NCBI GenBank assembly: GCA_019057385.1 | Contig: JAHQJS010000007.1 | Location: 192,001-256,000 of the forward strand | From: Candidatus Borrarchaeum weybense | GTDB lineage: Archaea > Asgardarchaeota > Sifarchaeia > Borrarchaeales > Borrarchaeaceae | Length of the DNA stretch: 64,000 nt | Direction of reading: 5' to 3' | Shown here: positions 15,579-33,602 of the stretch, piece by piece | How the letters are laid out: each line of letters opens with the position of its first letter | Position numbering within the stretch: position 1 is the first letter of the stretch | The notes under the pieces: model-generated | The model's input: only the letters and a program-made list of their open reading frames with translations | The model's database searches: none | What the model was told of the DNA's origin: nothing | Position numbers and translations under genes: made by a program

Positions 15579-15675
15579 TTTTTCAAGATTGATACACTAT
15601 TCTATCAGCAGCAACACAGATAATTAAAAAGAAAAAATGTTTGATAGAATCTTGTGCTATTCAAATTTTGTAGAA

Positions 15676-17091: not shown

Positions 17092-17131
17092 TTGATTTCA
17101 CCTTAATTTAATTCTTAAAATAGCCAGTTGC

Positions 17132-17911
17132 TTACTCAACACTTGTTAATTCCCAGTTATAGTGCCCTTCTTTTAACTGGGTCACAACTTGGACGGCTTC
17201 TTCAGCGTTATTACCATAACCGTCGGCGCCGATTTCTTTAGCGAACTTGCGGGTGACAGAGGGTCCACCAACTATGATCTTGAATTGATACTGGACTCGT
17301 AGTGGATCAAGGGCTTGAATGGTTTGCTTGAGAGAGAAGTTGGCAGTAGTATCCAACCAGGCACTGAGCCCTACAAATACAGGATGGTGCTGTTTGATGG
17401 CTTCTATAAAGCGATTGGGAGAGATGTCTACTCCCAGATTAATCACATCATAGCCAGCACCTTCCAAAAACAGTTCGACGATTTTAGGACCGATGCTATG
17501 CACATCACCCTCTACGGTGCCCATGACGATTTTTTCCCGGTCCGTGTCGAGTCCTTGTGATTTTATCAGCGGCTCGATAGCGTTCTTGATGAGTTCCACA
17601 CAGCGTGCAGCCATCCATAGGTCGGCAATAAACAGTTCTCGGATGGAAAACTGGTGTCCGACGGTGTTCATGGCGTCGCTGACAATCTCAAGGATTCGTA
17701 ATGGGTCGATATCCGCCTCCAATAATTGAGCCAGGAGATCTTTGATTAAATGGGACTCTCCTTTGATAACCATGTCTCTTAACTGTTCATATAATGAAAT
17801 GAGTTCGAAAGTGTCACCAGTAAATTTAGTATGGTAGTCGATTGGTTCCTCTCTGAGTGTATTGTTCAAGGGCTTATAATTTTCTTGAATGGTAGAAATG
17901 GGTTTCCTCAA
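17132..17911 (-). CDS. Corrinoid (B12-binding) protein, MtaC/MtbC-like
   Basis: Cap domain (AMNTVGHQF..ELFIADL), DxHxxG as GDVHSIG, NLGVD, GLSAWL, VGGP, GADGY. Confidence 0.92.
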   Translation of the reverse strand: MRKPISTIQENYKPLNNTLREEPIDYHTKFTGDTFELISLYEQLRDMVIKGESHLIKDLLAQLLEADIDPLRILEIVSDAMNTVGHQFSIRELFIADLWMAARCVELIKNAIEPLIKSQGLDTDREKIVMGTVEGDVHSIGPKIVELFLEGAGYDVINLGVDISPNRFIEAIKQHHPVFVGLSAWLDTTANFSLKQTIQALDPLRVQYQFKIIVGGPSVTRKFAKEIGADGYGNNAEEAVQVVTQLKEGHYNWELTSVE

Positions 17912-18632
17912 ATTGACATACCTCCAATTCGTTCAGGGTGATAAAAAACTGATAGACCTCCAGTAGGTCGATATCAAAGGGAGAATATAACTTCCATAAA
18001 CTGAGGATGGTGATTTTGTTGTTGACTCCTTGTACCAAGTTGGTGATCAAGTCCATGGGGTAATCACTCACCAGTTTAGAGGCGATTTCTCCCCTTAACA
18101 CCTTGTCTTTTTGTTCAGGAGTCATGACCGGGATTTTCATGCCCGCTTCTTTCATGAGATCCGATTTTTTTACAAACAGTGGCTGGGGAGTTGGTAGTTT
18201 TAAACGGTCCTTTAACTGTTGTGCATTGTCACAGAGAAGACGCAACTCATTACGCAAATAGTTTTGATCACCGCCAGTGCGTCCCAACAACTCATTGGCC
18301 AGTTTATCAGCTTCGTCTGTAGAGATGTCATCCTCAATGATCACGATTAGAATGTCCTTAGCGTCGGTGCCCTCTATGATGCGGTTGCGACGGGCGATCA
18401 CCATGCGTTCGCCCTGCTTTTCTATAACATCAACATCGGTCTCGGCTAGCCCCATATGGAACTGTGCCAGAATGATGGGATCCTTTAGGGTTTCTGCTAC
18501 CTTACTTTCAGAGCATATGCCCTCAAAGGCAATATAAGGCCCTGCCATGATATCAAATTTGAGGAGCAATATCGATTTGATGCCGCACTCCTGCAACGGA
18601 TAGGAATTTAAAAACAAGGGTTCACCGATCAC
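17874..18632 (-). CDS. Longin/uDENN-like (NPRL2-like) domain protein with probable C-terminal winged helix
   Basis: N-terminal ILLLKFDIMAGPYI matches the hhhxF(D/H)xxxGP hairpin of uDENN/NPR2 longin domains; GGAGG RBS; lies 3 nt after the GTPase stop. Fold is inferred. Confidence 0.55.
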   Translation of the reverse strand: MIGEPLFLNSYPLQECGIKSILLLKFDIMAGPYIAFEGICSESKVAETLKDPIILAQFHMGLAETDVDVIEKQGERMVIARRNRIIEGTDAKDILIVIIEDDISTDEADKLANELLGRTGGDQNYLRNELRLLCDNAQQLKDRLKLPTPQPLFVKKSDLMKEAGMKIPVMTPEQKDKVLRGEIASKLVSDYPMDLITNLVQGVNNKITILSLWKLYSPFDIDLLEVYQFFITLNELEVCQFEETHFYHSRKL

Positions 18633-18635
18633 TAC

Positions 18636-19187
18636 TCACGCCTCCCTTTCCGTTCGTTGCACCAATTCAAGAAACGCTTCCTTAACATTTGCACCTGTTA
18701 CTGCTGATGTGGGAAAAATTATAGTAGGATCATTTATGTCCAAATGATCAGCAATAGCCTCAATAGGCAAGGAGTTTGGTAGATCCTGTTTATTTGCACA
18801 TATTACATATGGTAGATGTAATTCTCCGACAATCAAATGATGAATATCTTTTGTGACTGCAAAACTATCTATATTCGAGGAATCAATGATCAAAAACGCG
18901 CCAGTTGCACCTCTCCACCAGAGTTTCCACAGCGGTTGATAACGCTGTTGACCTCCCAACTCCCAACTCACATAACACTTACCATTATTCAAGGGCACCT
19001 TATAAAATGCAACTCCTGGCGTCGGGATATATGTGCCAGAAGAATTTAACTGAGTTTCCTCAATTATACACTCAAGACAGGATCCAAAGGTACTTTTCCC
19101 AGCACCTGCGCTGCCCATTAGCAAAAATTTTGCTACTTTTTCTTGTGTACTAGTAATCTTGTTAGCGGATAGCTGTTTAACTCCCAT
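18636..19187 (-). CDS. Small Ras-superfamily GTPase (Arf/Arl-like)
   Basis: G1 GSAGAGKST, G2 PTPG, G3 WELGGQ, G4 ANKQD, G5 TSAVTG; RYQPLWKLW switch II; GGTGA RBS. Confidence 0.92.
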   Translation of the reverse strand: MGVKQLSANKITSTQEKVAKFLLMGSAGAGKSTFGSCLECIIEETQLNSSGTYIPTPGVAFYKVPLNNGKCYVSWELGGQQRYQPLWKLWWRGATGAFLIIDSSNIDSFAVTKDIHHLIVGELHLPYVICANKQDLPNSLPIEAIADHLDINDPTIIFPTSAVTGANVKEAFLELVQRTEREA

Positions 19188-19361
19188 TAAAGTTTCACCA
19201 CAGACTTTTAATAACGAATTATTTAAAGTCCGCGTTTTTCTGTACCAAATTTGACTTTTGCTCCATTATAAAAATAGGACGAATTATTTACTCTTTATAT
19301 GAATTTTAAAACGACAAAACTTAGAAAAAGCCTATCCAAAATTTTGAGACATGTTAAGAAC

Positions 19362-21284
19362 TTATTTCTGATTCAGAATCATGTTTAAAGCAGATTTTGT
19401 TTTTTCTAACTCTTCGAAAGACAAATGGGATAGTAATGTATTTGAAAAATGCCCATATTGTTGGATATATTTGAATAACGCAGCAATTAGAGGAATGTTT
19501 ATTGACTCAGCTAGTTTATATGACCCTAAAATAATGAGTTTTCTCTTTGCTCTTGTAATTGCTACATTAATCCTACGACTATCTTGCAGTACCTTAGCAG
19601 CCTTAGGATTAATGCCGTCATCTACTAGTGATATAATGACAATGTTGTTTTCTCGTCCCTGATATGAGTCTATTGTGCTTGATTTTGTAAATGACCAAAG
19701 ATTATAGACATTGTTTATCTGTTTCGGGAATGTCTGCTTGATCAACCGCCCTATTAGTGTGGCTTGAAGACGAAATGGTGTAACTACAGCTATGTCTTTT
19801 TCAAGATAGAAACCCGCTTTGTGATATTCTTTCATGATTTTAATGACCAAGGCAGCTTCGCTTAAATTACATGCAGAATATCGTTTACCGAATAATTTCC
19901 AGTCAAAACCTTGCCCCCCATTATAGTTAAACGTATCAATCCATACGATAGGGTATCGACCAGAGAGACTATGACTCCAATTATCTCGATTTTGAGGAAA
20001 GTAGTCAATTTGAGTATTTTCTATTCCATAGGCAGTTTTCAATTGATCATTGTAGATAAAATGACTTGGAAACATCGAGATGTATTTATTAGAACGATAC
20101 TGTGTGTTCAAAAAAATGCTATGATTTGGATATTTGGAAATAAGGACTTCAAAAAGTGATTTTTCTAGCTGCTGCTTTATTGGTACATTAAAAATGGGTG
20201 GCAGTTGAAGATGGTCGCCTACCAGGATTATTTTCTTACCAAACACCATGCCTACAAGCGTTAAAGGTATGCTTGCCATACTAGCCTCATCAATAATGAC
20301 ATAATCAAATGGTGGATTGTTCCAATCAAAATTAGAATGAAGAGTGTATAATCCGGCTTTTGTTAATGTAGAACCGACGATTTTATGTGATTTCAAGTCC
20401 TCAAAATTTCTTATATTACCTAAAAGCGGTCTGATGTTTGGCAATAACTTGGCATTTACGCCTAATCGAAGAACTGAATGTCTGATGTCATGCTCTTTTT
20501 TTTCTTTAAGAGCTTCTATGATCTTTTCAAGAGCGTTATCTACGGCAATGTTAGTATGTGACGTTATAAGTACTCTTTGATTTCTTTTAAGCAACTGTAA
20601 AACCAATTCTGAGATCACGGTAGTTTTTCCAGTACCAGGAGGCCCATGGATCAGAAAGAAATAATTATCATCCGTTAAATTAAGGCAATGTGCTACAGCT
20701 TTCTGTTGTGATTCGTTTAGAAGTTCTGTGGTATGATTTAGAGTTATTGGTGTTATAGAATCATAGATGTCTTTATCTTCAAGAAGTGTTCTAAGCTTTC
20801 GTAGCTGTTTACTTTCGCTATTCTGAATCCTTTCCAAAATATTTTCTTGAATTCGTAGCAGAATTTGGTTATCAGCTTTTCGTAGATTAACTATGTCACA
20901 ATATTTTAGCTCCTGAGATGAAAATCTACCCGAAAATGAAATATAATAATCCTTGGAATCATAATCAATAATAATCCCATAAAGTTCATTCTTTGGGTAT
21001 GAATGTGTATTTAATGTATTTATGGTCGAAAAGAGCTTTTCTTCACCATTTTCCCACGTTGCTATAATTGCATCCCCAGGTTTAACTCTGAAATCGCCTA
21101 TTGTACGTATTTTTTCAACCTTTACGTCCGCTAAATAGGAATAATCCTTTGGTATATTAAAAGAAGGCTTTCCAATTAGCCTTGGGACTGCTCTTTCACT
21201 AGTATGTTCCTTATTCTTTGCCCTAGTTAAATAGTCCCATAAATAAGTATACGTAAATCCTTCAATGCCTGTTTCTAGACTCAT
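19362..21284 (-). CDS. Superfamily 1B helicase (DNA2/NAM7/Upf1-like)
   Basis: LNESQ, HGPPGTGKTT, SHTNIAVDN, IIDEAS, VGDHLQLPP, QYRSN, TIDSYQGRE, RINVAITRAK. Confidence 0.93.
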   Translation of the reverse strand: MSLETGIEGFTYTYLWDYLTRAKNKEHTSERAVPRLIGKPSFNIPKDYSYLADVKVEKIRTIGDFRVKPGDAIIATWENGEEKLFSTINTLNTHSYPKNELYGIIIDYDSKDYYISFSGRFSSQELKYCDIVNLRKADNQILLRIQENILERIQNSESKQLRKLRTLLEDKDIYDSITPITLNHTTELLNESQQKAVAHCLNLTDDNYFFLIHGPPGTGKTTVISELVLQLLKRNQRVLITSHTNIAVDNALEKIIEALKEKKEHDIRHSVLRLGVNAKLLPNIRPLLGNIRNFEDLKSHKIVGSTLTKAGLYTLHSNFDWNNPPFDYVIIDEASMASIPLTLVGMVFGKKIILVGDHLQLPPIFNVPIKQQLEKSLFEVLISKYPNHSIFLNTQYRSNKYISMFPSHFIYNDQLKTAYGIENTQIDYFPQNRDNWSHSLSGRYPIVWIDTFNYNGGQGFDWKLFGKRYSACNLSEAALVIKIMKEYHKAGFYLEKDIAVVTPFRLQATLIGRLIKQTFPKQINNVYNLWSFTKSSTIDSYQGRENNIVIISLVDDGINPKAAKVLQDSRRINVAITRAKRKLIILGSYKLAESINIPLIAALFKYIQQYGHFSNTLLSHLSFEELEKTKSALNMILNQK

Positions 21285-21579
21285 ATTTATTCAACCAAAG
21301 GAAAAATTCAATTAAGAAATCAAAAATTTCTTTCGTTTTACATTCACTTGTGCTTTCAAGAGATTCTTGTTTTTTAAATCTCAAACTATAGTTTCAAGTC
21401 AAATCTATTCAAAGACTCTATCAAACAGTTGAATACGAGAACGTATATAAACCCCGCTTTTTGAAATAGTACGAAAAAGATATCGCATTTCAAGAAGGCA
21501 TCGCAATATAAAGCCATCCAACTTGTTGGAAACTCAAACAAAAATGCGCTGGCTTTTTATATATGTGTTAAAATAGAGT

Positions 21580-21858
21580 ATGAGTGTAAGAATTATGCAG
21601 GTCGAAAGTGATCCTTGGGAAAAGCTAGATCGACTTCAAGAACTACCAACATTGTTAACTGATACGTTAACCAATACGATGAGTTTTATTTTTCGTATAG
21701 GCTGGATGGTCGGTGGTTTTGTCTTTGCAATTGGCTTAATATGTTACATGTCAGGGATTGATGAACGTAATGGCAAGAAAATGATCTTCGGCGGCTTTCT
21801 TTTGTTTATGCTATTTCTCTATTTAGATACTGGTGTTTGGATAACTCTGTTTGGATGA
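21580..21858 (+). CDS. Small two-TM protein, VirB2/TrbC/CedA1-like pilin candidate
   Basis: Amphipathic N-terminal helix plus a Gly-rich TM hairpin (IGWMVGGFVFAIGLICY-SGIDERNGKK-MIFGGFLLF); TTTTATATA box about 25 nt upstream. Confidence 0.5.
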   Translation: MSVRIMQVESDPWEKLDRLQELPTLLTDTLTNTMSFIFRIGWMVGGFVFAIGLICYMSGIDERNGKKMIFGGFLLFMLFLYLDTGVWITLFG

Positions 21859-21986
21859 AAATTGAAAATTAGATTGATTTTGTAGAGATAAACATCAAAA
21901 CCTGCTATTTTAATTTCTATAATTTATTATGAGAATATATCAGTTTTTTGAATGTCCATAAAAGACTAAATTTGCTTTGTCTCATA

Positions 21987-22032
21987 GTGACATCCTCCCC
22001 AGCCTTTCGGAAGGGGACTTCCCGCCGCATAA
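21987..22032 (-). mobile_element. Minimal IS200/IS605 end remnant (PATE-like palindrome)
   Basis: Minus strand reads TTTAA-CTTATGCGGCGGGAAGTCCCCTTCCGAAAGGCTGGGGAGGATGTCAC. It shares CCCTTCCGAAAGG with the IS left end near 2126 and ends in TCAC like the right end at 3885. Confidence 0.7.
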
Positions 22033-22263
22033 GTTAAAATTCAAAATTTTGTATGTCAGTGAGTTTCATATCAGTTCAAAATACATTCACTTAACTCTCT
22101 GCGAATTTAGTTCATCACATCCAATGAACTATTTGTTCAATCAAGTAGATATTCTTTATTAAAAATACTTATAAGATCAAAAGAACATCTATAAAAAATA
22201 TGGATTTATCTTATCATTAAACATTTTCCACCTTTTCATAATATGTCTCCTTGGTGGTGAAAG

Positions 22264-23280
22264 ATGAGCGAATACAGCCTTCAAACATGTAATGAATGTA
22301 AAGGTAATATAGTGCTAAATAGAGGGCTCTATGTATGTGAAAAATGTGGTCTGGTGGCTGAAACCCACTATGTTCCTCAAGACTACATTATCTCAGTGTT
22401 TACTGACGAAAAAGAAATAGCAAAACAATATGTGAGTCCTGGTGAGAGAATTGACATTGTTGATGGAATGGGTAGTTATATCGGAAATTATAATGAAAAA
22501 AACAGTCGAGATCATAAGGGGAAACATCTTTCAAAAGAGAAAGAACTCTATTTCAGAAAGTTAAACCGAATTTACAATTTTAGAGCGCGAATACGTCATA
22601 AAGAATCTCAATACAGAGTATTAAAATCATTGAATAGAGCTGTAACTCTTCTTCATCTTTCGGATAAAATAAAACAGAGAGCAGCATATATTTATCGTAC
22701 GAGTCTTAAGCAGGTTAGCCAGGATGAAATTTTAACGCACCCTGTTTTAATGGTCGCTGCTCTTTTCATAGCAATTCGAGAACGAAGAGCACCTGTCACG
22801 TTACAGGAAGTAATAAAAACGTTTGGACAACTAGGTCATAGGATCCCACCAAGAAAAGTCATCCGTGCAATTGAACTTCTAAAGAAATCTCCAGGAATTG
22901 AACTTGTACAAAGAAAAAGCGAAGATTACATCCCCAGACTAGTCAGTAAAGTCCTTAAGCACCCTGAGGTTATATTGAGACTTAAGAGAAGATTTTGGAC
23001 ATCATTTGAGTATCAAACACTTATCATGAAGGCAGCAAATACACTCTTAGAAATAGTAACTACTGAGCAACGCGGCGGTAGACATCCCTACATATTTGCA
23101 ACCTCAGTACTTTATGGAGCCGATTTATTAATTGCTAAACAGTTTGAACGGCGATCAGTCCTCACACAGAAATTGTTGGCAAAAATAGCGAATGTCGCTG
23201 AATATAGCATCCGCGATCATTACTGCACGTTGTTGAAAAAATACGTTAAGGGAGAACAAAAACCAAAAATGTTCGTTTAA
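22264..23280 (+). CDS. tfb: Transcription initiation factor IIB (TFB) paralog, divergent
   Basis: Zn ribbon CNEC..CEKCGLV, two cyclin-like repeats (AALFIAIRERRAPVTLQE; GRHP..A), terminal HTH TQKLLAKIANVAEYSIR; GGTGA RBS. Confidence 0.85.
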   Translation: MSEYSLQTCNECKGNIVLNRGLYVCEKCGLVAETHYVPQDYIISVFTDEKEIAKQYVSPGERIDIVDGMGSYIGNYNEKNSRDHKGKHLSKEKELYFRKLNRIYNFRARIRHKESQYRVLKSLNRAVTLLHLSDKIKQRAAYIYRTSLKQVSQDEILTHPVLMVAALFIAIRERRAPVTLQEVIKTFGQLGHRIPPRKVIRAIELLKKSPGIELVQRKSEDYIPRLVSKVLKHPEVILRLKRRFWTSFEYQTLIMKAANTLLEIVTTEQRGGRHPYIFATSVLYGADLLIAKQFERRSVLTQKLLAKIANVAEYSIRDHYCTLLKKYVKGEQKPKMFV

Positions 23281-23326
23281 TTTTTTTAAATTTTTCATAG
23301 GTATTGATGATTAATAGTTACTGGAT

Positions 23327-24034
23327 TTACCAAATTAGGATTTTTAGGAGGCTTTGGGTTAGTAAAAAAATGATAAAGAAGATCATTGCAGATAGAATGA
23401 GCATGGACCAAGAAGATTCCCCATCAGTGAATTCTGTGAGTTGGTAAGCAGTAAATATTCCAATGAAGAAAAAACCTACAAAAGCAGGCCAAAAACTTAG
23501 TGGATTAAAAGCCAGATTATTAGTAAGCTCTGAGACATTTTGTTGCCGAAGTAGGAATAGCATTGAAAAGAGAGGTGTAAGAGCGGCTATGTAACCCATC
23601 ACTAATGAAGTTCCTAATGATAAGATTTTGGTTTTAAGGTTTTTTGCTCTCAAGAAATGATTACGCTTTTTAATCAAGTTATTATTTTCCTCTAAGGCTC
23701 TAACCATAGAAAGTAGAACTTTGCCAGCCTCTATAGAATCTTTTTCTAGAAATTTACAGGTGAGCTGTAATAGATATCGACTGTTAAGATTATTGAGAGA
23801 TAAAGCAAGATCTTTCAAGATTTGTTTTAGGGGTAAAGCCCCAACAAATAACTGACGAACTGCTATCATAAAATGTGGTTTTAAAAACCCGTTATATTTA
23901 CTTAAAGCATAGGTAAACGCCTGTTCTGGGCAGATACCAAGTTTCAACTCATCAGCAAAAAAGCTTAGAAAACAAGCAATTTCACTCAATTCTTCATCTG
24001 ACTGTTGTAATACTATAGTTGACTGTTGTTTCAT
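23327..24034 (-). CDS. Type IV pilus platform membrane protein (TadC/GspF-like)
   Basis: ELKLGICPEQAF soluble domain followed by 3 TM helices; overlaps the upstream gene; downstream of the pilus ATPase. Confidence 0.7.
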   Translation of the reverse strand: MKQQSTIVLQQSDEELSEIACFLSFFADELKLGICPEQAFTYALSKYNGFLKPHFMIAVRQLFVGALPLKQILKDLALSLNNLNSRYLLQLTCKFLEKDSIEAGKVLLSMVRALEENNNLIKKRNHFLRAKNLKTKILSLGTSLVMGYIAALTPLFSMLFLLRQQNVSELTNNLAFNPLSFWPAFVGFFFIGIFTAYQLTEFTDGESSWSMLILSAMIFFIIFLLTQSLLKILIW

Positions 24035-24852
24035 CCGACCAGCTCAATTCTGTTACTTAAGACCTTATTCTTAATGATATACAATAGGCAAATGTGTAAA
24101 GGGATAATGAACAAGATGAAAGGAGAACTAGCAAACCCGTTGATGGATAAAAAGATGCCTAAAAAGATTGGAAGAAAAGTGGTTATTCCGATAGTTAAGG
24201 TTAAGCGGCTGTCTAATTCAATAGTGAAGCGATCGTAGGCATTACGCACCTCTGATTGAGTTGAATCTTTCATCAATTCAATGGTCGTTTCTAAATCATT
24301 AATCGCGAATAAACTAGATAGATGTTTTCGAAGCGTAATGGAAGGCTGTTTCTTAGCGTAATCTAATAAAAGCGTTTCTGGATCTTCGTTGTTGTTAACC
24401 TGAAAGAGTATTTTTTCGAAATCTTTTGAAACTTGTGGGAAATCACTTTTAGCAACGAAATATATCGCATCGAACGTTGACCCAGCTAATAACGCTAATA
24501 ACAGAGTATTCAAGATCAAGTCAGCATATTTCTCAATGTTTAGTCTTTCATGAGCATATCTTAGAGGAAGAAAACGCATTAATAATCCGTGAATAATATA
24601 TGCGAGAAGTAAAGCAACTGATGAAAAAAGCAGTGGAGAAAGGTCTAAAATAAGTGAAAAACTGGTAATTATTAGGAAAATAATGGTTGCGAAGGCTTTT
24701 GATCCAGCTGAAATATCCTCTGGAGTGAGATTTAACTCCTCATAATAACGACATGGCATTAGCAAAGCAGTGGGACAAAGTTTTTTTCCTATAAATTTGA
24801 AAGGTTGGATGGAAAGTGCTTTGCATATATTCATAGGCAGATTTGAAAACAA
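24031..24852 (-). CDS. Type IV pilus platform membrane protein (TadB/TadC-like)
   Basis: 2 TM + soluble (AIYFVAKSDFPQVSKDF...PETLL..YA..QPS) + 2 TM topology; in an operon with the ATPase. Confidence 0.7.
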   Translation of the reverse strand: MFSNLPMNICKALSIQPFKFIGKKLCPTALLMPCRYYEELNLTPEDISAGSKAFATIIFLIITSFSLILDLSPLLFSSVALLLAYIIHGLLMRFLPLRYAHERLNIEKYADLILNTLLLALLAGSTFDAIYFVAKSDFPQVSKDFEKILFQVNNNEDPETLLLDYAKKQPSITLRKHLSSLFAINDLETTIELMKDSTQSEVRNAYDRFTIELDSRLTLTIGITTFLPIFLGIFLSINGFASSPFILFIIPLHICLLYIIKNKVLSNRIELVG

Positions 24853-24866
24853 TTTGCAAACCTCAG

Positions 24867-26510
24867 CTATTCTTTAATCTGGTTAACAACATATTTGTAG
24901 AGAGAAGACCAGTCTATTTCGTTATAATGCATTCTATGTCTGAGTTTTTCAGTGTGTAGCCCATGGAAGATTTGTACATTGAGATAAGGGTCAAATAATT
25001 GGTTCTGAACCAGATAATTTAGTAGTTTTATGTATGTAGACATTTCTTCAATGAATTCTTCTAACGTTAACCCTTCAACCATTCTGATAGATTTCATGGT
25101 GGGGACGTCATATTGTTCTGTTAATGTTTTTATTAGCTGCTTATCAAGATCAAAGACATCGAATAACTGTATAGAATTAACTTTCAGATCGATTTCCAGC
25201 GGTATATCGGTTTTTTCAAATGGTTTTTCGACCTCACTTACTCGCCTTACCTTACGGATAAGTTTTTGATGGTAATAAGCCCGCATAAAGACGATGAGGT
25301 CTAAAGTTAATAGATTAATGGGAGCAATACCATGATGTTCTACCCAGCGGACAATCAGATTTTCAGGCGACGATGCGTGGCAGGTTTGAATTAAGTGTAG
25401 ACCTGCTGTAAGTGCATGAAATACTGCTTGAGAATGTTCCTGGGTTTGAATTTCCCCTAAGAAAACGTAATCAGGCGATCGATGTAATAATTTAACAATC
25501 TCTTTACTTTTGCTTCGTGAAGCATTCTCGCCTTCAAAGGGTATTACCTGTAGCCGTACTTGATGTTTATCGTAAGTATGTTGGGGGACGCTTTCGATGA
25601 CATCTTCGATGGTTATTTTTCGCCACTCAGGAGGAGTGATCAGATCCAGTGCATTAACTAGTGTGGTTTTACCCGAATTAGGTTCCCCAATGACCGTAAT
25701 ATTACAGCGTCGTAGCATAGCAAAATACAGGTAAGCGGCGATTTCCACAGGTAAAGTGCCATTCGCTACCAATTCTGGCAAAGTAAAGGCTTTACGCTTT
25801 AGTTTACGCACATCTAAATGCAAGCCATCGACAGCAAGAGGAGCGATGTCCATTGAAGTGCGAACATGAAAATTGTCAGTGATCAATTCTGTTTTGATAG
25901 AAGGATTACTTTCGTCCAGTAACAGACCGCTTTCATAGCGTAACCTTGTTTTTATACGTTCTAAATCAGCTTCAGATAAAATAACATTAGTCTTACAACG
26001 TCCCCAGGTGCGATGGTCTAAATAGAGCTGGGTGTTAGGACAATCTAGATAAAACTCTTCTATATGTTCATCCATAAGAAAAGGGGCAACCTTAAAGATA
26101 CCCGTTAGTTTATAGCAGGCTAGATCTATTAATTCATCTAAATCTTTCATTGATGCAAATTCAGGGTAATGTTTGTAAATATGCTCTTTAATTAGTGTCT
26201 TCCTCGTATTGAATAACTCTTGTAGGCTATAGAATCGAGGATCCAGAGGTTTGTTTTGAGTATCATTATCAAAGATCATACTTCCTGAAAGATGTTTCGC
26301 AATTGATTCAACGATTTCACCAAAAGGTGAAGTGTCTACTAGACTGTTATAGGCGTATAGTGCTTCGTTGGTATATTTTCCTGCACGCCTATATATTTTA
26401 ATATGATAAGGACCTATCTTGTACTGTTCAATTACTTTTGAGAATTCATCCATTTCCGAAAGATGAGAATGGGTCGAATCTTCATTAAGTTTGCATCTGT
26501 TCTTCTGCAA
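24867..26510 (-). CDS. Type II/IV secretion / pilus assembly ATPase (TadA/VirB11/CpaF family)
   Basis: PFLMDEHIEE, Walker A GEPNSGKTT, Asp box IEDVIE, Walker B PDYVFLGEIQ, His box TCHA. Confidence 0.9.
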   Translation of the reverse strand: MQKNRCKLNEDSTHSHLSEMDEFSKVIEQYKIGPYHIKIYRRAGKYTNEALYAYNSLVDTSPFGEIVESIAKHLSGSMIFDNDTQNKPLDPRFYSLQELFNTRKTLIKEHIYKHYPEFASMKDLDELIDLACYKLTGIFKVAPFLMDEHIEEFYLDCPNTQLYLDHRTWGRCKTNVILSEADLERIKTRLRYESGLLLDESNPSIKTELITDNFHVRTSMDIAPLAVDGLHLDVRKLKRKAFTLPELVANGTLPVEIAAYLYFAMLRRCNITVIGEPNSGKTTLVNALDLITPPEWRKITIEDVIESVPQHTYDKHQVRLQVIPFEGENASRSKSKEIVKLLHRSPDYVFLGEIQTQEHSQAVFHALTAGLHLIQTCHASSPENLIVRWVEHHGIAPINLLTLDLIVFMRAYYHQKLIRKVRRVSEVEKPFEKTDIPLEIDLKVNSIQLFDVFDLDKQLIKTLTEQYDVPTMKSIRMVEGLTLEEFIEEMSTYIKLLNYLVQNQLFDPYLNVQIFHGLHTEKLRHRMHYNEIDWSSLYKYVVNQIKE

Positions 26511-26549
26511 AACACTTCACCATGCTTATATGAGCTAAACGGTTTGACC

Positions 26550-29480
26550 TTACAAATCTAAAGTAATGTCATCAAACAATTTTCGTTTCCCAATAACAGT
26601 TAAAATTAAGCCAATGCAACTCACTGCGCTGATTCGAACGCCTAAAGAAACCGTAGCTAGATTAAGACCTTTTACGACTGTGAGATTATACTCTAGTTGT
26701 GAGGTTTGGTAACCCGATTTTTCGACAGTGACAGTCAATAGGTATTCACCTGGAGTTAACTCTGAAGTATCTAGCACTGCTTTATAGATGCCTGGTTCGA
26801 CTTCTTGACATTCGAGTGTATAATTGGTGTTCAATGTGATAGTAACATGGGCTTGCTCGATCGGGGCACCTTGGTCATCGTTAATTGTCACAATAATTTC
26901 TTTTTTAGTATTTGAGTTGAGTTGGATGTTATTTTCCAAGTTAACTGTCACTAGTAATGATGCTGTTTCAGTTGATGAGCCATTTCCCCCTCCGTTGTCG
27001 TCATTTCCGCTACTTCCATTGCTGCCGCCATCTCCATCTCTCGGGTTGTCAGTGTCTTTGGTTTCAAGTGAGATATTAGTCCCTATATATGCATCGGCGA
27101 TGGTTATCCCATAGCACAGCCCCGAACTGCCACCCTGAGGGGAGTTGGCATCTTCAGTAAAACTGGCGTGATACCAGTAGGTTTCCTGTGCGCCGATTAA
27201 GGCGTTGGACATCCCCAGAGTATCGCTTGAGGTGGCCACCATCTGTCTGGAGGCCGCATTCACCAAGTCCGCCCGGTTTTGTAACTCAACATCACTAAGG
27301 TAGTTGGCCAGTTTCTGCAGCGCATAACTGCTACCGTAGGCCGGTCGTAGGGCGTTGAGTTCCACTGAGGTGGCGAATGCTCCTTTGGTCTTGAAATTGT
27401 GGTCTCCCAGCCGTGAACTACCGGTGAAGGGAACGTTCCAGGCGTATTGCCAGGTTATCAGCCACTCGGCGGTCAGGTTTGCTTTGGTCAGGTAGAGGGT
27501 ATTATCGGTCAGTTCGTAAAAGCGAAGTAGGCCCTTGAGCATATATTCAGCAGTTTTAGAATCGATGATATGCTTTTTGTAGCCGTAACTAAAGTCGTAG
27601 CGCCCGGTATCCACCCCAAAGAAGCGGGCCTTATCTACAAATTCGGTGATGTAATGATTCATGGCCAGCATCGCAGCGTCCGAATAGGTGGTATTGCCGG
27701 TTAGCGTAGCTAATTCCATCAGGCTCAAGGCAACAGTTACGCCGCCGGCTCCTGCGATATCGTTGCAACTGGAACTGATGCCGTTGGTCCAGGTGTTGCC
27801 AAACGTCCCGTTAGCAAACTGCTTGACCACAAATATGTTGATAGCTGCTTCCACATATGCTAGCCAGTCGGGGTGGCTATCACCATACTGTTCTGCCACT
27901 AGATAGCATTGCAGCAGGTTGTATAGTACCTCTCCGCTTTTGGAGGTATGTACGTCGCCGCCGTGATCTCGTGCGTTAGCATACGAGGTATTGGTCTCCA
28001 GGTAGTAATCGGGTAATAGCCAGCCGTACTCACTCAGCGTAACGGCCGAGGGGTTACGGCTCAGGTCAATGAATTCATCGATTATCTGGTTGGCAGTAAC
28101 AATCATGGAAGTGTTCCCTGTCTGATAGCCATAATAAAGCAACGCATATGCCAGGGCGTGTTGTTGCCCCAGTTGACCGCCTATGGAGCCGCTGCTTCCG
28201 CCTATGAATTCCACGGGGGTTCCATCGTTGAAAAAGCCCGCTAAGAACAAGTATTCGTTATCAGTATCATTTTTATGATAAAAGGTGCGGTAGGCGAGTT
28301 CGGCTTTGAGTTGTAGGACATCTTGCATGCTTAACGTGGGATTGGTCGCCGAATAATTACCGTTAATCCAAGCCCACCCCAGTTGTACCGGTTCGATGAA
28401 CCCGTAATTCGGGGTAGTTGTCATACCCAGATAGAGCCGGTAGGTTTTGTTGAGAGTGGTAGTGGCATCGACGGTCAGGGAGTTCTTGTTGAAGGCCCAC
28501 TCATACTGGTCACGGCAACCTGGATTATCCTGATTTATTTGCTGGTTTATATGTTTAGTATAGGTATATCCTTCTCGTTGTGAGCCACCACTGGTCCAAC
28601 CACCTAAATAGTTGATGAGGTCGAAATGATCATCATGCCCTTGATATCCCAGTGAGGAGTTACCAGTATGCTCCTGTCCATCATACACATAAGTAGGAGC
28701 GGTCAGTAAGCCACACACAAAATCATCGTATTCCCAGATAACTGCCGGTACGCTAAGGCGTTCTTGCTCCACGATGAGATACTGGGACTGGTTGCTTAAA
28801 TCAGACATGGGGAAATCAGGTGTTACCTGCCGCTCTGCGGTATTCAAGTCGTATAAATTGCCGTTATAAAAGCAGCCGGGCATCATCAAGGTGTCAGCTT
28901 TACGTGGGGTAATTGCTCCGGGGTAAGTGATTGATAAATTGAATGGTAGTAGCACTGCTTCTTCCACCGAATTGTTCAAATGTTCCCAGTGCCGTTCGAT
29001 CTCCACATAATCCCACCCGTCCCGGAGGGTGTAATAATCGGTGACCTGCCACAAATGGCCGTTAGCGTCTGTGATGGTGACACATTCCTGATAAAATTCT
29101 TCCCAACTGACATCCACCTGTTTAGGATAGATTTCTCTGATGGTGTACTTCGTAACGGGCGATTGCGAGGTATCTGGGGCTATCGAAACTTGGAAATGAC
29201 CCATGGTGGCAATTTCAGTCCAGTCATTCCCATCCCACACGAAGAAGTAGGGTAAATAGGTGATTTGTTGTCCCGGGGGATTCTCCAGCCGTTCCTCAGT
29301 CATGAAACTGATGCGGATCCGCCCATTATCGATGGTAGGATCCATAAATCCATCACCGTTATAATCGGTTGTCCCATCAAAGGAGATGTCGGCCTTGGCC
29401 TGCGGACTATAAAAGGGTAAACCGAGTAATAACATCCCTATGAGGAACAAAACACTATATTTTGCAGAATGAGGCACCAT
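26550..29480 (-). CDS. Large secreted, membrane-anchored protein; probable beta-sandwich + (alpha/alpha)6 glycoside-hydrolase-like domain, Gly/Ser/Asn linker, Ig-like domain
   Basis: Signal peptide ending QAKA; repeated helical motifs (ALLYYGYQTGN, LMELATLTGN..Y, LLRFYELTDN.LYL..A...AEWL..WQ); linker DGDGGSNGSSGNDDNGGGNGSS; PGIYKA..PGEY..VEKSGY Ig-like domain; C-terminal TM. Confidence 0.7.
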   Translation of the reverse strand: MVPHSAKYSVLFLIGMLLLGLPFYSPQAKADISFDGTTDYNGDGFMDPTIDNGRIRISFMTEERLENPPGQQITYLPYFFVWDGNDWTEIATMGHFQVSIAPDTSQSPVTKYTIREIYPKQVDVSWEEFYQECVTITDANGHLWQVTDYYTLRDGWDYVEIERHWEHLNNSVEEAVLLPFNLSITYPGAITPRKADTLMMPGCFYNGNLYDLNTAERQVTPDFPMSDLSNQSQYLIVEQERLSVPAVIWEYDDFVCGLLTAPTYVYDGQEHTGNSSLGYQGHDDHFDLINYLGGWTSGGSQREGYTYTKHINQQINQDNPGCRDQYEWAFNKNSLTVDATTTLNKTYRLYLGMTTTPNYGFIEPVQLGWAWINGNYSATNPTLSMQDVLQLKAELAYRTFYHKNDTDNEYLFLAGFFNDGTPVEFIGGSSGSIGGQLGQQHALAYALLYYGYQTGNTSMIVTANQIIDEFIDLSRNPSAVTLSEYGWLLPDYYLETNTSYANARDHGGDVHTSKSGEVLYNLLQCYLVAEQYGDSHPDWLAYVEAAINIFVVKQFANGTFGNTWTNGISSSCNDIAGAGGVTVALSLMELATLTGNTTYSDAAMLAMNHYITEFVDKARFFGVDTGRYDFSYGYKKHIIDSKTAEYMLKGLLRFYELTDNTLYLTKANLTAEWLITWQYAWNVPFTGSSRLGDHNFKTKGAFATSVELNALRPAYGSSYALQKLANYLSDVELQNRADLVNAASRQMVATSSDTLGMSNALIGAQETYWYHASFTEDANSPQGGSSGLCYGITIADAYIGTNISLETKDTDNPRDGDGGSNGSSGNDDNGGGNGSSTETASLLVTVNLENNIQLNSNTKKEIIVTINDDQGAPIEQAHVTITLNTNYTLECQEVEPGIYKAVLDTSELTPGEYLLTVTVEKSGYQTSQLEYNLTVVKGLNLATVSLGVRISAVSCIGLILTVIGKRKLFDDITLDL

Positions 29481-30235
29481 AATCCCCGTAAATCTTTGAA
29501 TTATGCATTACAGTTAGCATTCTCTGTCTTCCAGCGACCTATATAAGTCCCCCTAAAACTCTAACTAGTCTAACTTGCCGTATGAAAGTAAAGTGATGAG
29601 AGCCAAAATAGAAAATCTAGTATATAGAAATGAATAACTTTGAAGAAATTCATTATAGTTACGAGAAAATTAAGAATACTCATATTGCATAACCGACAAA
29701 ATGTATGCTGTTCTCAAAATCGGTGACATGTTTTTTCATACAAAATACTTTTCTAAAAGTCTTATAGTCTGCCTCTCGTGAACTTAAAGAAACTTAAATC
29801 AGAATTCTTGATAAAATTAACAATAATCGCATAAAAAGAATTGTTTCACTTACACAGCACTCCCACTGTTAGTTTAAATCTAAGCTATCGCAGTATAAGA
29901 TAAATAAAAATCACTTGTATCTTATCGAAAAGTAAAAGCGTCTGCTATTTGATAATTGTGTTGTCCTTATATAGAGCCATTAAAATAAAGAGATGTAACC
30001 ATACGTTAAATGTGATAGTAGAGTGGAATAGATCGTCGATATAGAGTTGACGGTGTTGCATACTTAAAATATGATATACTCTAACTGTCAGAACAAACAC
30101 GTGGATAAGGGGGCTGTAATAGCCTTAAGAACAGGAGTAATACTTAAAGAAAAACTCAAATAAGGATATGCCGACTCAGATCTTATAAAAATCTATTGTC
30201 AAGAATAAGAAACGTTATTTAGAAGGAAAGAAAGA
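29481..30235. other. 755-bp AT-rich intergenic region upstream of cdc6; candidate replication origin or divergent regulatory region
   Basis: Longest non-coding gap in the window, adjacent to orc1/cdc6. Only loose ORB-like motifs (CACGTGGATAAGGGGG near 30098; CCCCC..ACTCTAACT near 29549-29566). Confidence 0.35.
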
Positions 30236-31435
30236 ATGTTACTATCCGATATCTTCGAAGAGGAATTGAGAAGTCCAACAGTATTTAGGGACGAATCTAA
30301 ATTAAACGAATCATATATGCCATCTTCTTTACCTCATAGAACTTCTGAGCTCCGAGAGTTGATTCGCCTATTTTTAGGTTTGATGAAAAATCCTGGTGAA
30401 ATGAGTCAACGAGTTACTATTAGTGGAAGTATCGGTACTGGAAAAACGGCGCTTTCTAAATGTTTTGGAAAAATCTTGGAAGAGTATGAAACAACACATA
30501 ACAAGAATTTACATTATGTTCATATTAATTGTCGACGTAAAAAATCACGCTTCTTAATACTCAGGCAAGTTGTATTTCATTTCAATCCTACAGTGCCCCA
30601 TAGAGGTTATTCACCAGAAGAACTACTTTACATGCTTGATTGCTTATTGGAGTCACAAAATGCTCATTTAGTTCTAGTACTCGATGAACTTGATTTTATT
30701 TTAGGTAGAAATGACAGATCTCTTCTCTATGATCTAACACGATGGACTGATGAGCAATTAAATGGCGTTCAACGTGTATCCCTGATACTCATTGTAAGGG
30801 ACAGGGCTTATCTGAAGAAGTTAGATGCAAGTACACTGAGTTCACTTCAAAATAATCATATCTATCTAGCGCCTTATTCTGCTTCTCAACTTGTGGATAT
30901 TTTACAGGAGCGGGCAACTGAAGCATTGTTTGACTACGCAGTCAATTCTGAGGTTCTCAATCTCATTGCCGATATTGCCAGTGAACGAGGTGATGCTCGT
31001 TTTGCTCTGGAACTCTTATGGCGCGCCGGAAAATATGCTGACCGTGATAGAGTCCCCTCTATTCTTCCAGAGCATGCTCGACTGGCCAAAGCTGATGTTC
31101 ATCCGCGCGTTAGAAAAGATTTCTTTCATGAATTGTCACCACATCAGCAATTAGTATTATTGGCTATTATCCGCCAATTGAAAAAACACGAAGCCGCCTA
31201 TACGACCACAGGAGATGTTGAAATCAACTACAATGTTATCTGCGAAGAATATGATGAAACTCCACGAAAACATACCCAACTGTGGGAATACATTAAAGAA
31301 CTTGAACAATTGGGCATTATCACAACTAAGATCTCCAGCAAAGGTATACGTGGTAAAACCACTTTAATTGGATTGCCAGATGCACCACTGTCCCTACTCG
31401 AAAAAGAACTTCAAAATAATCTAAAAGAGTATTAA
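30236..31435 (+). CDS. cdc6: Orc1/Cdc6 replication initiator family AAA+ protein
   Basis: LPHR, Walker A GSIGTGKT, VHINC, Walker B VLDELD, PYSASQL.DIL..R, GDARFAL, wHTH ending GIRGKTTLI. Confidence 0.95.
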   Translation: MLLSDIFEEELRSPTVFRDESKLNESYMPSSLPHRTSELRELIRLFLGLMKNPGEMSQRVTISGSIGTGKTALSKCFGKILEEYETTHNKNLHYVHINCRRKKSRFLILRQVVFHFNPTVPHRGYSPEELLYMLDCLLESQNAHLVLVLDELDFILGRNDRSLLYDLTRWTDEQLNGVQRVSLILIVRDRAYLKKLDASTLSSLQNNHIYLAPYSASQLVDILQERATEALFDYAVNSEVLNLIADIASERGDARFALELLWRAGKYADRDRVPSILPEHARLAKADVHPRVRKDFFHELSPHQQLVLLAIIRQLKKHEAAYTTTGDVEINYNVICEEYDETPRKHTQLWEYIKELEQLGIITTKISSKGIRGKTTLIGLPDAPLSLLEKELQNNLKEY

Positions 31436-31456
31436 AAATAAGGGAGTATATAAGAA

Positions 31457-31783
31457 ATGACGCTTGATTTGTCAAATATTCTTACTCAACAAGAACCATT
31501 TCCACCTATAGAAGAAGTGCTTTCTTCAAAAGGAAAAATTAAAATTCTAAAGATTTTAACCCTTTACGATGAATTAAACATCTCTGAGATCGTACGAAAA
31601 GCGCAACTTAACCATGCCACTGTTACTCAACATCTTGATTACTTTAAATCCATCGCAATTGTAGAAGAAAAAGCATTTGGACGAATAAAAATCTATCAGT
31701 TAACAGATGACATAAAAGTCAGAGTCATTCGTGAATTAATAGAATTCTGGGAACGATCAGAGTCCTCATCCGCATTAAAATGA
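31457..31783 (+). CDS. ArsR-like winged-helix protein downstream of cdc6
   Basis: SSKGKIKILKIL..ELNISEIVRKAQLNHATVTQHL...EKAFGRIKIY. Confidence 0.85.
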   Translation: MTLDLSNILTQQEPFPPIEEVLSSKGKIKILKILTLYDELNISEIVRKAQLNHATVTQHLDYFKSIAIVEEKAFGRIKIYQLTDDIKVRVIRELIEFWERSESSSALK

Positions 31784-31998
31784 TAATGCTGTAATTGATG
31801 AACTAAAAGCGTTCCAGCATTAGAAATCAATTATTTTTTCCTTTGAGTGAACAGAAGTTTGTGTATGAAGTGCTATTGCCTTCAAAGAAAATTGTGGTGC
31901 TTAAATAGTAGACAATATACTTTTTAATGAATAATAATGAGTTCGTGGACTTTACAGCCGAAAATTGATAAAAATCTTATTTTGATGAGGCGGGAATT

Positions 31999-33312
31999 GT
32001 GAGAGTCATAATTAAAGAAGAGAATATCGATTTAGAGACTCATAGTTTTTTACGAGAATGTGGCATCACGGCTGTAGTTTTACTCAAATTTGATCTTGCA
32101 ATGGGACCATATATCGCTTTTAAAAGCGTGTATGAGCAAAATGTAAATAGTATAAGACCCCTAGAAGATCCTGAATATCTTGCACAATTTTATGTTGGCA
32201 TTTCAGGAACTGAAATGGATACTCTCGAAAAAAATGAAGAACGAATCGTCATTGCTCGCCAAAAATACGTTATAGACGCCACACATGTTACTGATGTTCT
32301 ACTTCTCTGCATAGACAATGAAATATCAACTTCTTCGGCTATTACCTTTGCTCAAGAACTAATAACTAATTCGAATGCTGAGCCTCATCACCTTGAAGAG
32401 TTACTTGTACAACTTAAAGAAACGGCACCGGATTTGGAATTCCAATTGAAAATTCACCCTCAGAGGATACCTTTAGAACTACAAAGCTTGAATAGAGTTC
32501 AAAAATTGAATAAATTAACAAAATTTAAAAAATTTGTAACCAAGCCTTTGGATTTATTTCAAAAAATAGAAACTAATGAAATTGAACTCATGTTCACTCA
32601 ATTACGTAAATCTATGTTCTTCATTCGAATACCTTTTGAGGATCTAGATATCACTCGCTTTTTTGAAACTTTTCTCACCCAAATTTCAATAGATAAGAAT
32701 ACTGTCTTTTCTATTGAAATGATCCAAATTAATGCGAGATTCTATTTAGTTATGACATTAGTTTTACCACCCAATCAAAGAAATTTTATAGAACGTTTAG
32801 CTGGCAGTTTGAATATGAGAGGCTTTTCCATCTCACTTGTAAAAGAAAAAGATTTGAAAAAACATTGGATTGCACCCTTAGGGATCACGAACGGTACATC
32901 AATTCGAATCTCGCGAAAACACAAAAACTATATTCAAGTGCTTAATTCACCACAGCGTTTGATCTCCTTGTATAAAAGCAAGACAATACTACCACTCACC
33001 TTAACAACACTTACACAAATTCAAGAATCATTGTGTACTACTATCCTCTGTAGAGGTTTAAAGAAGAATAAGGCTTGTGTTGAAATACTATTTGCAAAAG
33101 TACACTCGTCTAAAGCAGAGATCGATCAATTTGAGCTTCCTAAAGAACTTTCTAGGTATTTTTTTAAAGTAAAAGGTAGACGAGCATTAACAGACACGAT
33201 AAAGGCCCTATTATTAAGAGATTGTTCGAAAGGTATTAAACTCTCATTAAAAGAATTATATGAATTCTTTCTAGGAATAGATTTAGTAAATCTTGAAAAA
33301 CTTGTTAAATAA
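31999..33312 (+). CDS. Longin/uDENN-like N-terminal domain fused to an uncharacterised alpha/beta domain resembling the N-terminal part of the neighbouring VirB4-like ATPase
   Basis: ECGITAVVLLKFDLAMGPYIAF... is clearly paralogous to the 17874-18632 protein; GAGG RBS before GTG. Confidence 0.6.
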   Translation: MRVIIKEENIDLETHSFLRECGITAVVLLKFDLAMGPYIAFKSVYEQNVNSIRPLEDPEYLAQFYVGISGTEMDTLEKNEERIVIARQKYVIDATHVTDVLLLCIDNEISTSSAITFAQELITNSNAEPHHLEELLVQLKETAPDLEFQLKIHPQRIPLELQSLNRVQKLNKLTKFKKFVTKPLDLFQKIETNEIELMFTQLRKSMFFIRIPFEDLDITRFFETFLTQISIDKNTVFSIEMIQINARFYLVMTLVLPPNQRNFIERLAGSLNMRGFSISLVKEKDLKKHWIAPLGITNGTSIRISRKHKNYIQVLNSPQRLISLYKSKTILPLTLTTLTQIQESLCTTILCRGLKKNKACVEILFAKVHSSKAEIDQFELPKELSRYFFKVKGRRALTDTIKALLLRDCSKGIKLSLKELYEFFLGIDLVNLEKLVK

Positions 33313-33344: not shown

Positions 33345-33602
33345 TCAAGAAAGAATGATTCTTTCTACTTGTTTTTCTTTAGATATTTCGTTAAACAAAC
33401 TAGAGAAGTGTTCCTCGGCAGTTTTTAGTTCCTCAAATTCATAAAAATCATTAATTTTTGTTTCTTCAGAAATAAAAAGAAAGTATTTATCACCACAGCC
33501 TCGAATTAAACACAAGAATGTGTCTTCATCAAAGCAGAAGCTTTGAATTAATTCCCATCTGCACCCGCTAGAGACTTTTTTTACCAATGTTTCTACTACC
33601 AT
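33345..33602 (-). CDS. Small hypothetical protein translationally coupled to the VirB4/HerA-like ATPase
   Basis: TAATG stop/start overlap at 33602 with GGAGG upstream. Confidence 0.65.
   Translation of the reverse strand: MVVETLVKKVSSGCRWELIQSFCFDEDTFLCLIRGCGDKYFLFISEETKINDFYEFEELKTAEEHFSSLFNEISKEKQVERIILS

Follow-up and report, generated by a model that had tools for sequence, protein, structure and literature searches.

Small GTPases are encoded by the dozen in Asgard genomes, as are longin and roadblock proteins. Their genes rarely stand in operons, so that the regulators cannot be matched to their GTPases (PMC10933270). Among longins, a GP motif located where strand 2 begins, or at the end of the loop leading into it, is specific to the GTPase-activating protein (GAP) longins FLCN, NPRL2, SMCR8 and C9orf72 and is present in some Asgard longins; Asgard GP-motif longins are already described as a class (PMC12290439). 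In C9orf72 the motif reads WD-x3-GP, with W33-D34 and G38-P39 (PMC12290439). Here we analysed a 64,000-nucleotide (nt) stretch of Candidatus Borrarchaeum weybense DNA (positions 192,001 to 256,000 of contig JAHQJS010000007.1, assembly GCA_019057385.1), hereafter the window, to which coordinates without a contig label refer. Judged by the sources of its homologues, the organism belongs to the Promethearchaeota (Asgard archaea). Its subject is an N-terminal domain shared by two proteins, P0001 and P0002, whose genes lie 14 kb apart. An earlier note had described this domain as longin-like and portable, and had proposed that it docks on a single GTPase regulating both a corrinoid and a VirB4-like module. 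We found a longin domain with a GP motif, two architectures of which adjoin one narrow clade of Arf-like GTPases, while a third stands beside a membrane-anchored ATPase.

The shared domain and its architectures

P0001 (252 amino acids (aa); 17874-18632, minus strand) and P0002 (437 aa; 31999-33312, plus strand), referred to as type A and type B, aligned in BLASTP with 56 of 142 positions identical (39%), 65% positives and 2 gaps (expect value (E) 2e-30). The aligned segment covered residues 13-152 of P0001 and 18-159 of P0002, and the shared N-terminal domain measures about 135 aa. Past residue 152 of P0001 and 159 of P0002, BLASTP gave no segment better than E 0.9, and the C-terminal parts are therefore unrelated. 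These results confirm that one domain sits on two different C-terminal parts; the similarity is far above chance, and the same motifs are kept in all other copies found. The corrinoid and VirB4-like modules, which had been taken for those C-terminal parts, are both separate neighbouring genes. What follows the domain is instead a conserved part of about 100 aa in P0001 and a part of about 280 aa in P0002, neither matching a known family. P0001 and P0002 gave no Pfam match at E ≤ 1 and no NCBIfam family, and an Atlas feature search with residues 185-437 of P0002 returned no usable match. Profile searches of the PDB with the longin domain and with the type A C-terminal part yielded only chance-level, coiled-coil-like rows, and PDB longins were not found with the domain. 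The AlphaFold 2 (AF2) model of full-length P0002, built with 17 homologues, was unusable (mean predicted local distance difference test score (pLDDT) 38.5). An echo of the P0002 C-terminus in the N-terminal region of the neighbouring ATPase P0026 was rejected at the sequence level (BLASTP best E 0.30).

The domain of P0001 (approximately residues 13-145; 18198-18596, minus strand) was delimited by AF2 model, structural matches and alignment, and that of P0002 (approximately residues 18-150; 32050-32448, plus strand) by alignment. With seven sequences aligned, the AF2 model of the domain reached a pLDDT of 87.9 and a predicted template-modelling (TM) score of 0.84. DSSP assigned E11-20, E24-32, H45-56, E62-65, E68-79, E82-92, H98-112 and H116-128, and this order of strand-strand-helix-strand-strand-strand-helix-helix is that of a longin with a five-stranded antiparallel sheet. 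It is not the roadblock/LC7 (MglB-like) order, since only a 5-residue helix precedes strand 1 and two helices follow strand 5. In an exhaustive structural comparison (VIA), the top 20 rows were all longins (Z 8-9.2, root-mean-square deviation 2.7-3.5 over 101-118 residues), including the VAMP7 longin (Z 9.2), BLOC-3 (8.7), AP mu/sigma (8.4-8.9), CPLANE (8.2) and GATOR1 (8.0); roadblock chains (Z 6.6-7.0) and profilin chains (Z about 7) stood lower. The best rows of Foldseek were chains of SEA and GATOR1 complex entries, at E 4e-3 only, and re-scoring of its list again placed longins on top, with NPRL2 at Z 8.4 over 128 residues. The nearest named clusters in the ESM Atlas were C9orf72 (TM 0.68), Npr2 (0.63-0.65) and DENND11/Avl9, and a Promethearchaeota cluster of a 341-aa GTP-binding (Arf-domain) protein was also near. 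The sole lead to Pfam NPR2 was an Atlas cluster (feature score 0.89) in which 19% of the members carried PF06218. Both the element order and the top structural matches bear out the label longin-like.

Across 34 family members of all four architectures described below, G17, F26, D27, G31, P32 and E75 (P0001 numbering) were invariant. Most of them form an FD-x3-GP motif at the start of strand 2, G31-P32 being model residues 24-25, and the spacing between F26-D27 and G31-P32 equals that between W33-D34 and G38-P39 of C9orf72. Arginines were distributed by type: types A and B retain R76, all type A members have R81, R82 and R84, and type C has no arginine at any of these four columns. Type D is variable here, with R81 and R84 recurring in some members.

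The domain is rare: only 28 of 1.84 billion cluster representatives matched its profile at E ≤ 0.001, and these proteins fall into four architectures, A to D. Type A has about 252 aa and type B about 430 aa. In type C the domain forms the last 130-150 residues of 400-1,560-aa proteins built of Ig-like or LamG domains. Type D is a more distant set of about 390-410 aa in other Asgard families; a region shared by types B and D beyond the longin domain was rejected, as hhalign aligned their first 170 or so columns only. The genome of the window (G000; 4.18 Mb, 8 contigs; related genomes are labelled G001-G005) holds six copies in three architectures, two each of A, B and C. The second type A copy (C3:145192) is 98% identical to P0001, the second type B copy (P0023, C5:16591) is 52% identical to P0002 over its full length, and the type C copies are the C-terminal tails of P0024 (1,658 aa) and P0025 (1,531 aa). 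With four architectures, three of them in one genome, the domain deserves the word portable.

Neighbourhoods of types A and C

The gene of the Arf-like small GTPase P0003 (18636-19187, minus strand) ends 3 nt upstream of P0001. It is a real GTPase gene, as the earlier note had assumed (Pfam Arf 67.6 bits against a cut-off of 22.3), with a P-loop, a PTPGVAFYK switch I, WELGGQ and NKQD. GxxGxGKS, PTPGVAF, WELGGQ, NKQD and SA were conserved in 22 homologues of P0003, and its best PDB matches were mostly Arf and Arl proteins. The close orthologues of P0003 all start with Met-Gly, and several gene calls add an upstream extension of 28-48 aa; myristoylated eukaryotic Arfs also start with Met-Gly. 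Several orthologues of P0003 are labelled "signal recognition particle receptor subunit beta" by JGI. P0003 and P0001 are followed on the minus strand by a corrinoid (B12-binding), MtgC/MtbC-like protein (17132-17911) and a UROD-fold (MtaA-like) protein (15676-17091) as third and fourth genes of one operon. The same four-gene operon was found in three genomes of the same genus (G001, G002 and G003). It recurs on a JGI sediment contig, with genes of the ribosome and of RNA polymerase next to it. G005, which belongs to another family, has the operon too; its longin protein is only 35% identical, and the operon genes either overlap or are spaced by 10 nt.

P0003 is not the single GTPase of the earlier note. 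The genome encodes at least 37 small GTPases (Arf/Ras-like, by the Arf model), four of which form the clade of P0003 (100, 83, 47 and 43% identity); all others are at most 32% identical. Among 31 related genomes of 23 genera searched, the clade was found only in the genera g1 and g2, which carry types A-C. One clade member (C7:436622-437293) is divergent from the type C gene of P0025, about 520 bp apart. Its orthologues P0092 and P0095 show the same divergent arrangement beside giant proteins in four other assemblies, so that the pair is conserved in five assemblies. The giant neighbours measure 2,120-2,127 aa, with a 1,167-aa contig-end fragment in the fourth contig, and the tails of the two that were compared are 48-49% identical to that of P0025. 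In GCA_048940565.1, the giant longin-tailed protein has GTPase genes on both sides (L035:435-1061), the second, immediately downstream, encoding a 208-aa Arf/Ras/Gtr1_RagA-like protein. A further clade GTPase of the window's genome (C7:58613-59209) lies directly downstream of a Hel308/Ski2-like helicase (C7:59394-62348, 984 aa) with a C-terminal extension rich in Cys-x2-Cys pairs.

The two type C proteins of this genome are giant surface proteins, P0025 with LamG and Ig domains (C7:437816-442411) and P0024 of a multi-Ig/macroglobulin-like make-up (C7:30803-35779). In each, a signal-like helix stands at the N-terminus, and a single hydrophobic helix precedes the longin domain by about 60 (P0024) or 35 (P0025) residues. 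Basic residues come after the hydrophobic helix in both, and the longin domain should therefore be cytoplasmic.

The conserved neighbourhood gives good support for an association of types A and C with this one clade. It suggests that the domain docks on GTPases in these types, and the main reason is that two independent architectures adjoin the same GTPase clade. The docking role proposed by the earlier note thus gains support for these two types and finds none for type B, neither of whose conserved contexts includes a neighbouring GTPase gene. When P0003 (with GTP and Mg) and the longin domain of P0001, each as an alignment, were submitted to complex prediction, the score was 0.01, which is no answer and is neutral either way.

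Type B, the neighbouring ATPase and the 14-kb spacing

Convergent with P0002 lies the gene of P0026, a 947-aa membrane-anchored HerA/DUF87-type ATPase (33602-36445, minus strand). Downstream of the ATPase gene, and sharing 1 nt with its stop codon, lies the gene of an 85-aa soluble protein (33345-33602, minus strand), which belongs to no family and is kept at 78-86 aa in all B1-type loci. Directly upstream of P0002 are a Cdc6/Orc1 gene and a small ArsR/MarR-like helix-turn-helix (HTH) gene (30236-31783, plus strand). G003, G004 and four further contigs from metagenomes or metagenome-assembled genomes keep this B1 order at 60-87% identity: Cdc6, HTH and P0002, then on the opposite strand the 85-aa gene and P0026, then aconitase. 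The context of the second copy, B2 (P0023), is equally conserved and consists of translin and B2, then on the opposite strand MoaB, MoaC and the ATPase P0027. B genes and such ATPase genes both number exactly two in the genome, and each B gene has one of the ATPase genes beside it; identity is 52% between the B proteins and 59% between the ATPases. Since B and the ATPase were duplicated together and are constantly adjacent, this pairing points to the HerA/DUF87 ATPase as the partner of type B. The name VirB4 had been given to 33602-36445. No VirB4/CagE model matched it; Pfam gave only a weak AAA_22 match for P0026 itself and DUF87/HerA for its orthologues and paralogue, and the CedD and HerA_antiphage matches in NCBIfam were far below the cut-off. 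A membrane-anchored ATPase of the HerA/FtsK superfamily describes it better.

The distance between A and B is 14 kb in the window and about 18 kb in G001 and in a second locus of the same genome. This second locus spans C3:110438-147211 and C5:1-22706, the end of C3 and the start of C5 being adjacent in the genome, as shown by contig C106 of G001, which is collinear across the gap. It holds paralogues of nearly every gene in window positions 15676-36445, at 52-99% identity. The UROD-like, corrinoid and type A proteins are 97-99% identical to their window copies, followed by the surface protein (86%), the GTPase (82.5%), Cdc6 (81%), the Tad-like ATPase (79%), TFB (77%), the HTH protein (76%), the superfamily 1 (SF1) helicase (70%), two small pilus-cluster genes (70%), the HerA-like ATPase (59%) and type B (52%); a 92-aa open reading frame also has its paralogue there. 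Gene order is only partly collinear, and the side of the operon on which type B lies differs from one locus to the other. The earlier note held that many scattered copies of the domain would make the proximity of A and B a matter of chance: copies are indeed several, six in all, and the spacing itself recurs in the paralogous locus. The proximity of A and B thus occurs twice and is conserved in the genus. Shared duplication history explains this spacing at least as well as function does, and because that history is shared, the two A-B occurrences are not independent evidence of function.

The four-gene operon itself is duplicated (15674-19247), with 91-93% nt identity to the C3 end and C5 start. 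A duplication that also included the GIFT-like gene at 14451-15578 was rejected, as this gene is only 20% identical to the GIFT gene of C5. Within the operon, a tract of about 900 bp (17598-18497; counterpart C3:~145300-146200) covers most of gene A and is 99-100% identical between the copies, with flanks at 75-94%. It is likely a recent gene-conversion tract. This reading fits the finding that the A genes of G000 are closer to each other than to their positional orthologues in G002, while the GTPases sort by locus. It also fits the places where short-read assemblies break at the operon repeat, namely the end of C3 in G000 and, in G004, the positions just past each of the two GTPase genes (contigs C85 and C18), and the data from four sediment metagenome runs. 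In these runs, long contigs extend into the repeat on either side (to 15709 on one, from 19037 on the other), depth rises inside it, and no piece among those listed spans the whole duplicated operon. Contig C129 of G002 independently joins helicase, GTPase and A1.

Explanations weighed and known systems compared

Taken as a whole, the following explanation has in our view slightly better than an even chance. The shared segment is a lineage-restricted longin domain of the GP-motif class, which this lineage attached to different outputs. Most likely, the type A domain docks on the Arf-like GTPase encoded 3 nt upstream and regulates it or acts downstream of it, as GAP or effector, and the pair would work together with the corrinoid protein and the UROD-like methyltransferase, presumably encoded on the same transcript. 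The type C domain would serve as the cytoplasmic tail of giant surface proteins, the LamG-type member probably recruiting the neighbouring paralogous GTPase. The functional partner of type B would be the convergent membrane HerA/DUF87 ATPase with its 85-aa companion; contact with a GTPase would have to occur in trans and is not indicated. The 14-kb spacing would then be a legacy of two paralogous super-loci and not the sign of a demonstrated joint circuit. We infer GTPase binding, GAP-like action and the partnership of B with the ATPase; what the data show are homology, fold, motif, copies, architectures, synteny and duplications. Several findings weigh against this explanation. No arginine is invariant in the 34 sequences, so that a GAP role would be type-specific at most. 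The domain matched neither the Pfam models NPR2 (PF06218), Folliculin and C9orf72 nor any Pfam longin family. Type D longins occur in genomes without the GTPase clade at E ≤ 1e-25, the clade GTPase at C7:58613-59209 has no longin neighbour, and the type C protein P0024 has no GTPase neighbour. In addition, the distance between A and B stays within 14-18 kb in the window, in its paralogous locus and in G001; a functional tie between them is conceivable.

This last point belongs to the reading in which the GTPase at 18636-19187 docks on both longins and couples the corrinoid methyltransferase with the HerA-like ATPase and the pilus, as MglA/MglB do with type IV pili. The two domains, 39% identical, keep all family-invariant residues as well as R76; type B, lacking a nearby GTPase of its own, would need one in trans; and a Tad-like pilus ATPase cluster lies between A and B, at distances that recur as described. 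However, unrelated genes fill the spacing, the gene order differs between the loci, and P0003 has three other clade members among the GTPases of the genome. The only constant neighbour of type B is the ATPase, plus Cdc6-HTH in the B1 loci, and B1 and B2 (52%) have diverged far more than the GTPase pair (82.5%). We therefore regard a joint circuit as unlikely, and regulation of both modules by one GTPase, as the earlier note had it, is left unsupported.

Two further readings concern the domain itself. Catalytic and non-catalytic halves pair in NPRL2-NPRL3, FLCN-FNIP and SMCR8-C9orf72. The longins of A, B and C might likewise pair together as a dimerisation platform, the GTPase binding the dimer and A being recruited to C tails or to B. 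Eukaryotic GAP longins and Asgard roadblock and longin proteins act as dimers (PMC10933270, PMC12290439), the arginines are asymmetric (the type A-specific ones are missing in C, and R76 is kept in A and B), and soluble and membrane-tethered forms of one family occur in the same genome. On the other side, no operon sets two different longin types side by side, and we hold the platform to be improbable. Alternatively, the domain may have no GTPase role and be a generic scaffold or a ligand-binding longin/profilin-like module, with GTPase adjacency reflecting co-regulation of unrelated functions. In some proteins, such as SNAREs, longin domains function without a GTPase (PMC10933270); so small a fold often gives Z scores of 7-9, profilins reaching about 7; and type B, type D (in whose gene contexts no GTPase neighbour was seen) and one type C protein have no GTPase neighbours. 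This reading is distinctly unlikely, given that two independent architectures adjoin the same clade, that family and clade co-occur phylogenetically, and that the GP motif is specific to GTPase-directed longins (PMC12290439).

This family offers what the scarcity of operons has withheld, matched pairs: one narrow Arf-like clade adjoins one narrow GP-motif longin family, in one case within a conserved operon and in the other next to a transmembrane protein with that domain as its tail. An archaeal origin, as proposed for the eukaryotic longin GAPs (GATOR1, folliculin, C9orf72-SMCR8), thereby becomes directly testable with a few small soluble proteins, and there may be a receptor-to-GTPase link in the closest prokaryotic relatives of eukaryotes. 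A bolder version would place receptor-to-GTPase signalling in this Asgard genus on one longin module: the non-catalytic tails of giant surface adhesins or receptors and the arginine-bearing type A would form heterodimers as a membrane GAP or platform for the dedicated Arf-like clade, and type B would link this switch to the membrane HerA-like translocase. To this version we give little credence; if true, it would be a prokaryotic forerunner of membrane GATOR1/FLCN-type longin GAP complexes, coupled to B12-dependent methyl transfer. Three features are new here: the operon in which a longin is matched with genes of a GTPase and of corrinoid methyl transfer, giant surface proteins that end in a longin and adjoin a paralogous GTPase, and the pairing of the B-type fusion with a membrane HerA-like ATPase.

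Among known systems, MglA-MglB of Myxococcus and archaeal roadblock-GTPase pairs resemble the type A locus in that a GTPase gene comes immediately before one for a small alpha/beta platform of the roadblock/longin superfamily; the present domain differs in its longin order, with no N-terminal helix and two C-terminal ones, and in its weaker roadblock matches. The SRX of SR-alpha/SR-beta likewise brings a longin-type domain together with an Arf-like GTPase (the present domain reached Z 7.1 against 5ck3, an SRX complex entry), whereas here there is no context of a signal recognition particle receptor, the GTPase is of a soluble type without an N-terminal membrane anchor, and the neighbours are corrinoid and UROD genes. 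P0003 shares with Asgard ArfR/AArf (bioRxiv 10.1101/2024.02.28.582541; PMC11914678) the Pfam Arf match and the W-x-x-GGQ...PLW interswitch/switch II, and differs in that its clade is confined to two genera among the 31 genomes. From the GAP longins NPRL2 (of GATOR1), FLCN and SMCR8/C9orf72 and from the Asgard FLCN/SMCR8-type longins (PMC12290439), the present family differs in showing no Pfam-level match to NPR2, Folliculin or C9orf72, no family-wide arginine finger and no DENN or other known C-terminal part; its domain is fused to modules of no known family or forms surface-protein tails, and type A stands in a corrinoid methyltransferase operon. Shared with them are the longin fold and the GP with which strand 2 begins; an aromatic-Asp pair stands four residues ahead of the GP, as in C9orf72. 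NPRL2, Npr2 and C9orf72 also gave the longest structural alignments (126-138 residues, including the extra helix), and the partners of the known GAP longins are Arf/Rag-type GTPases.

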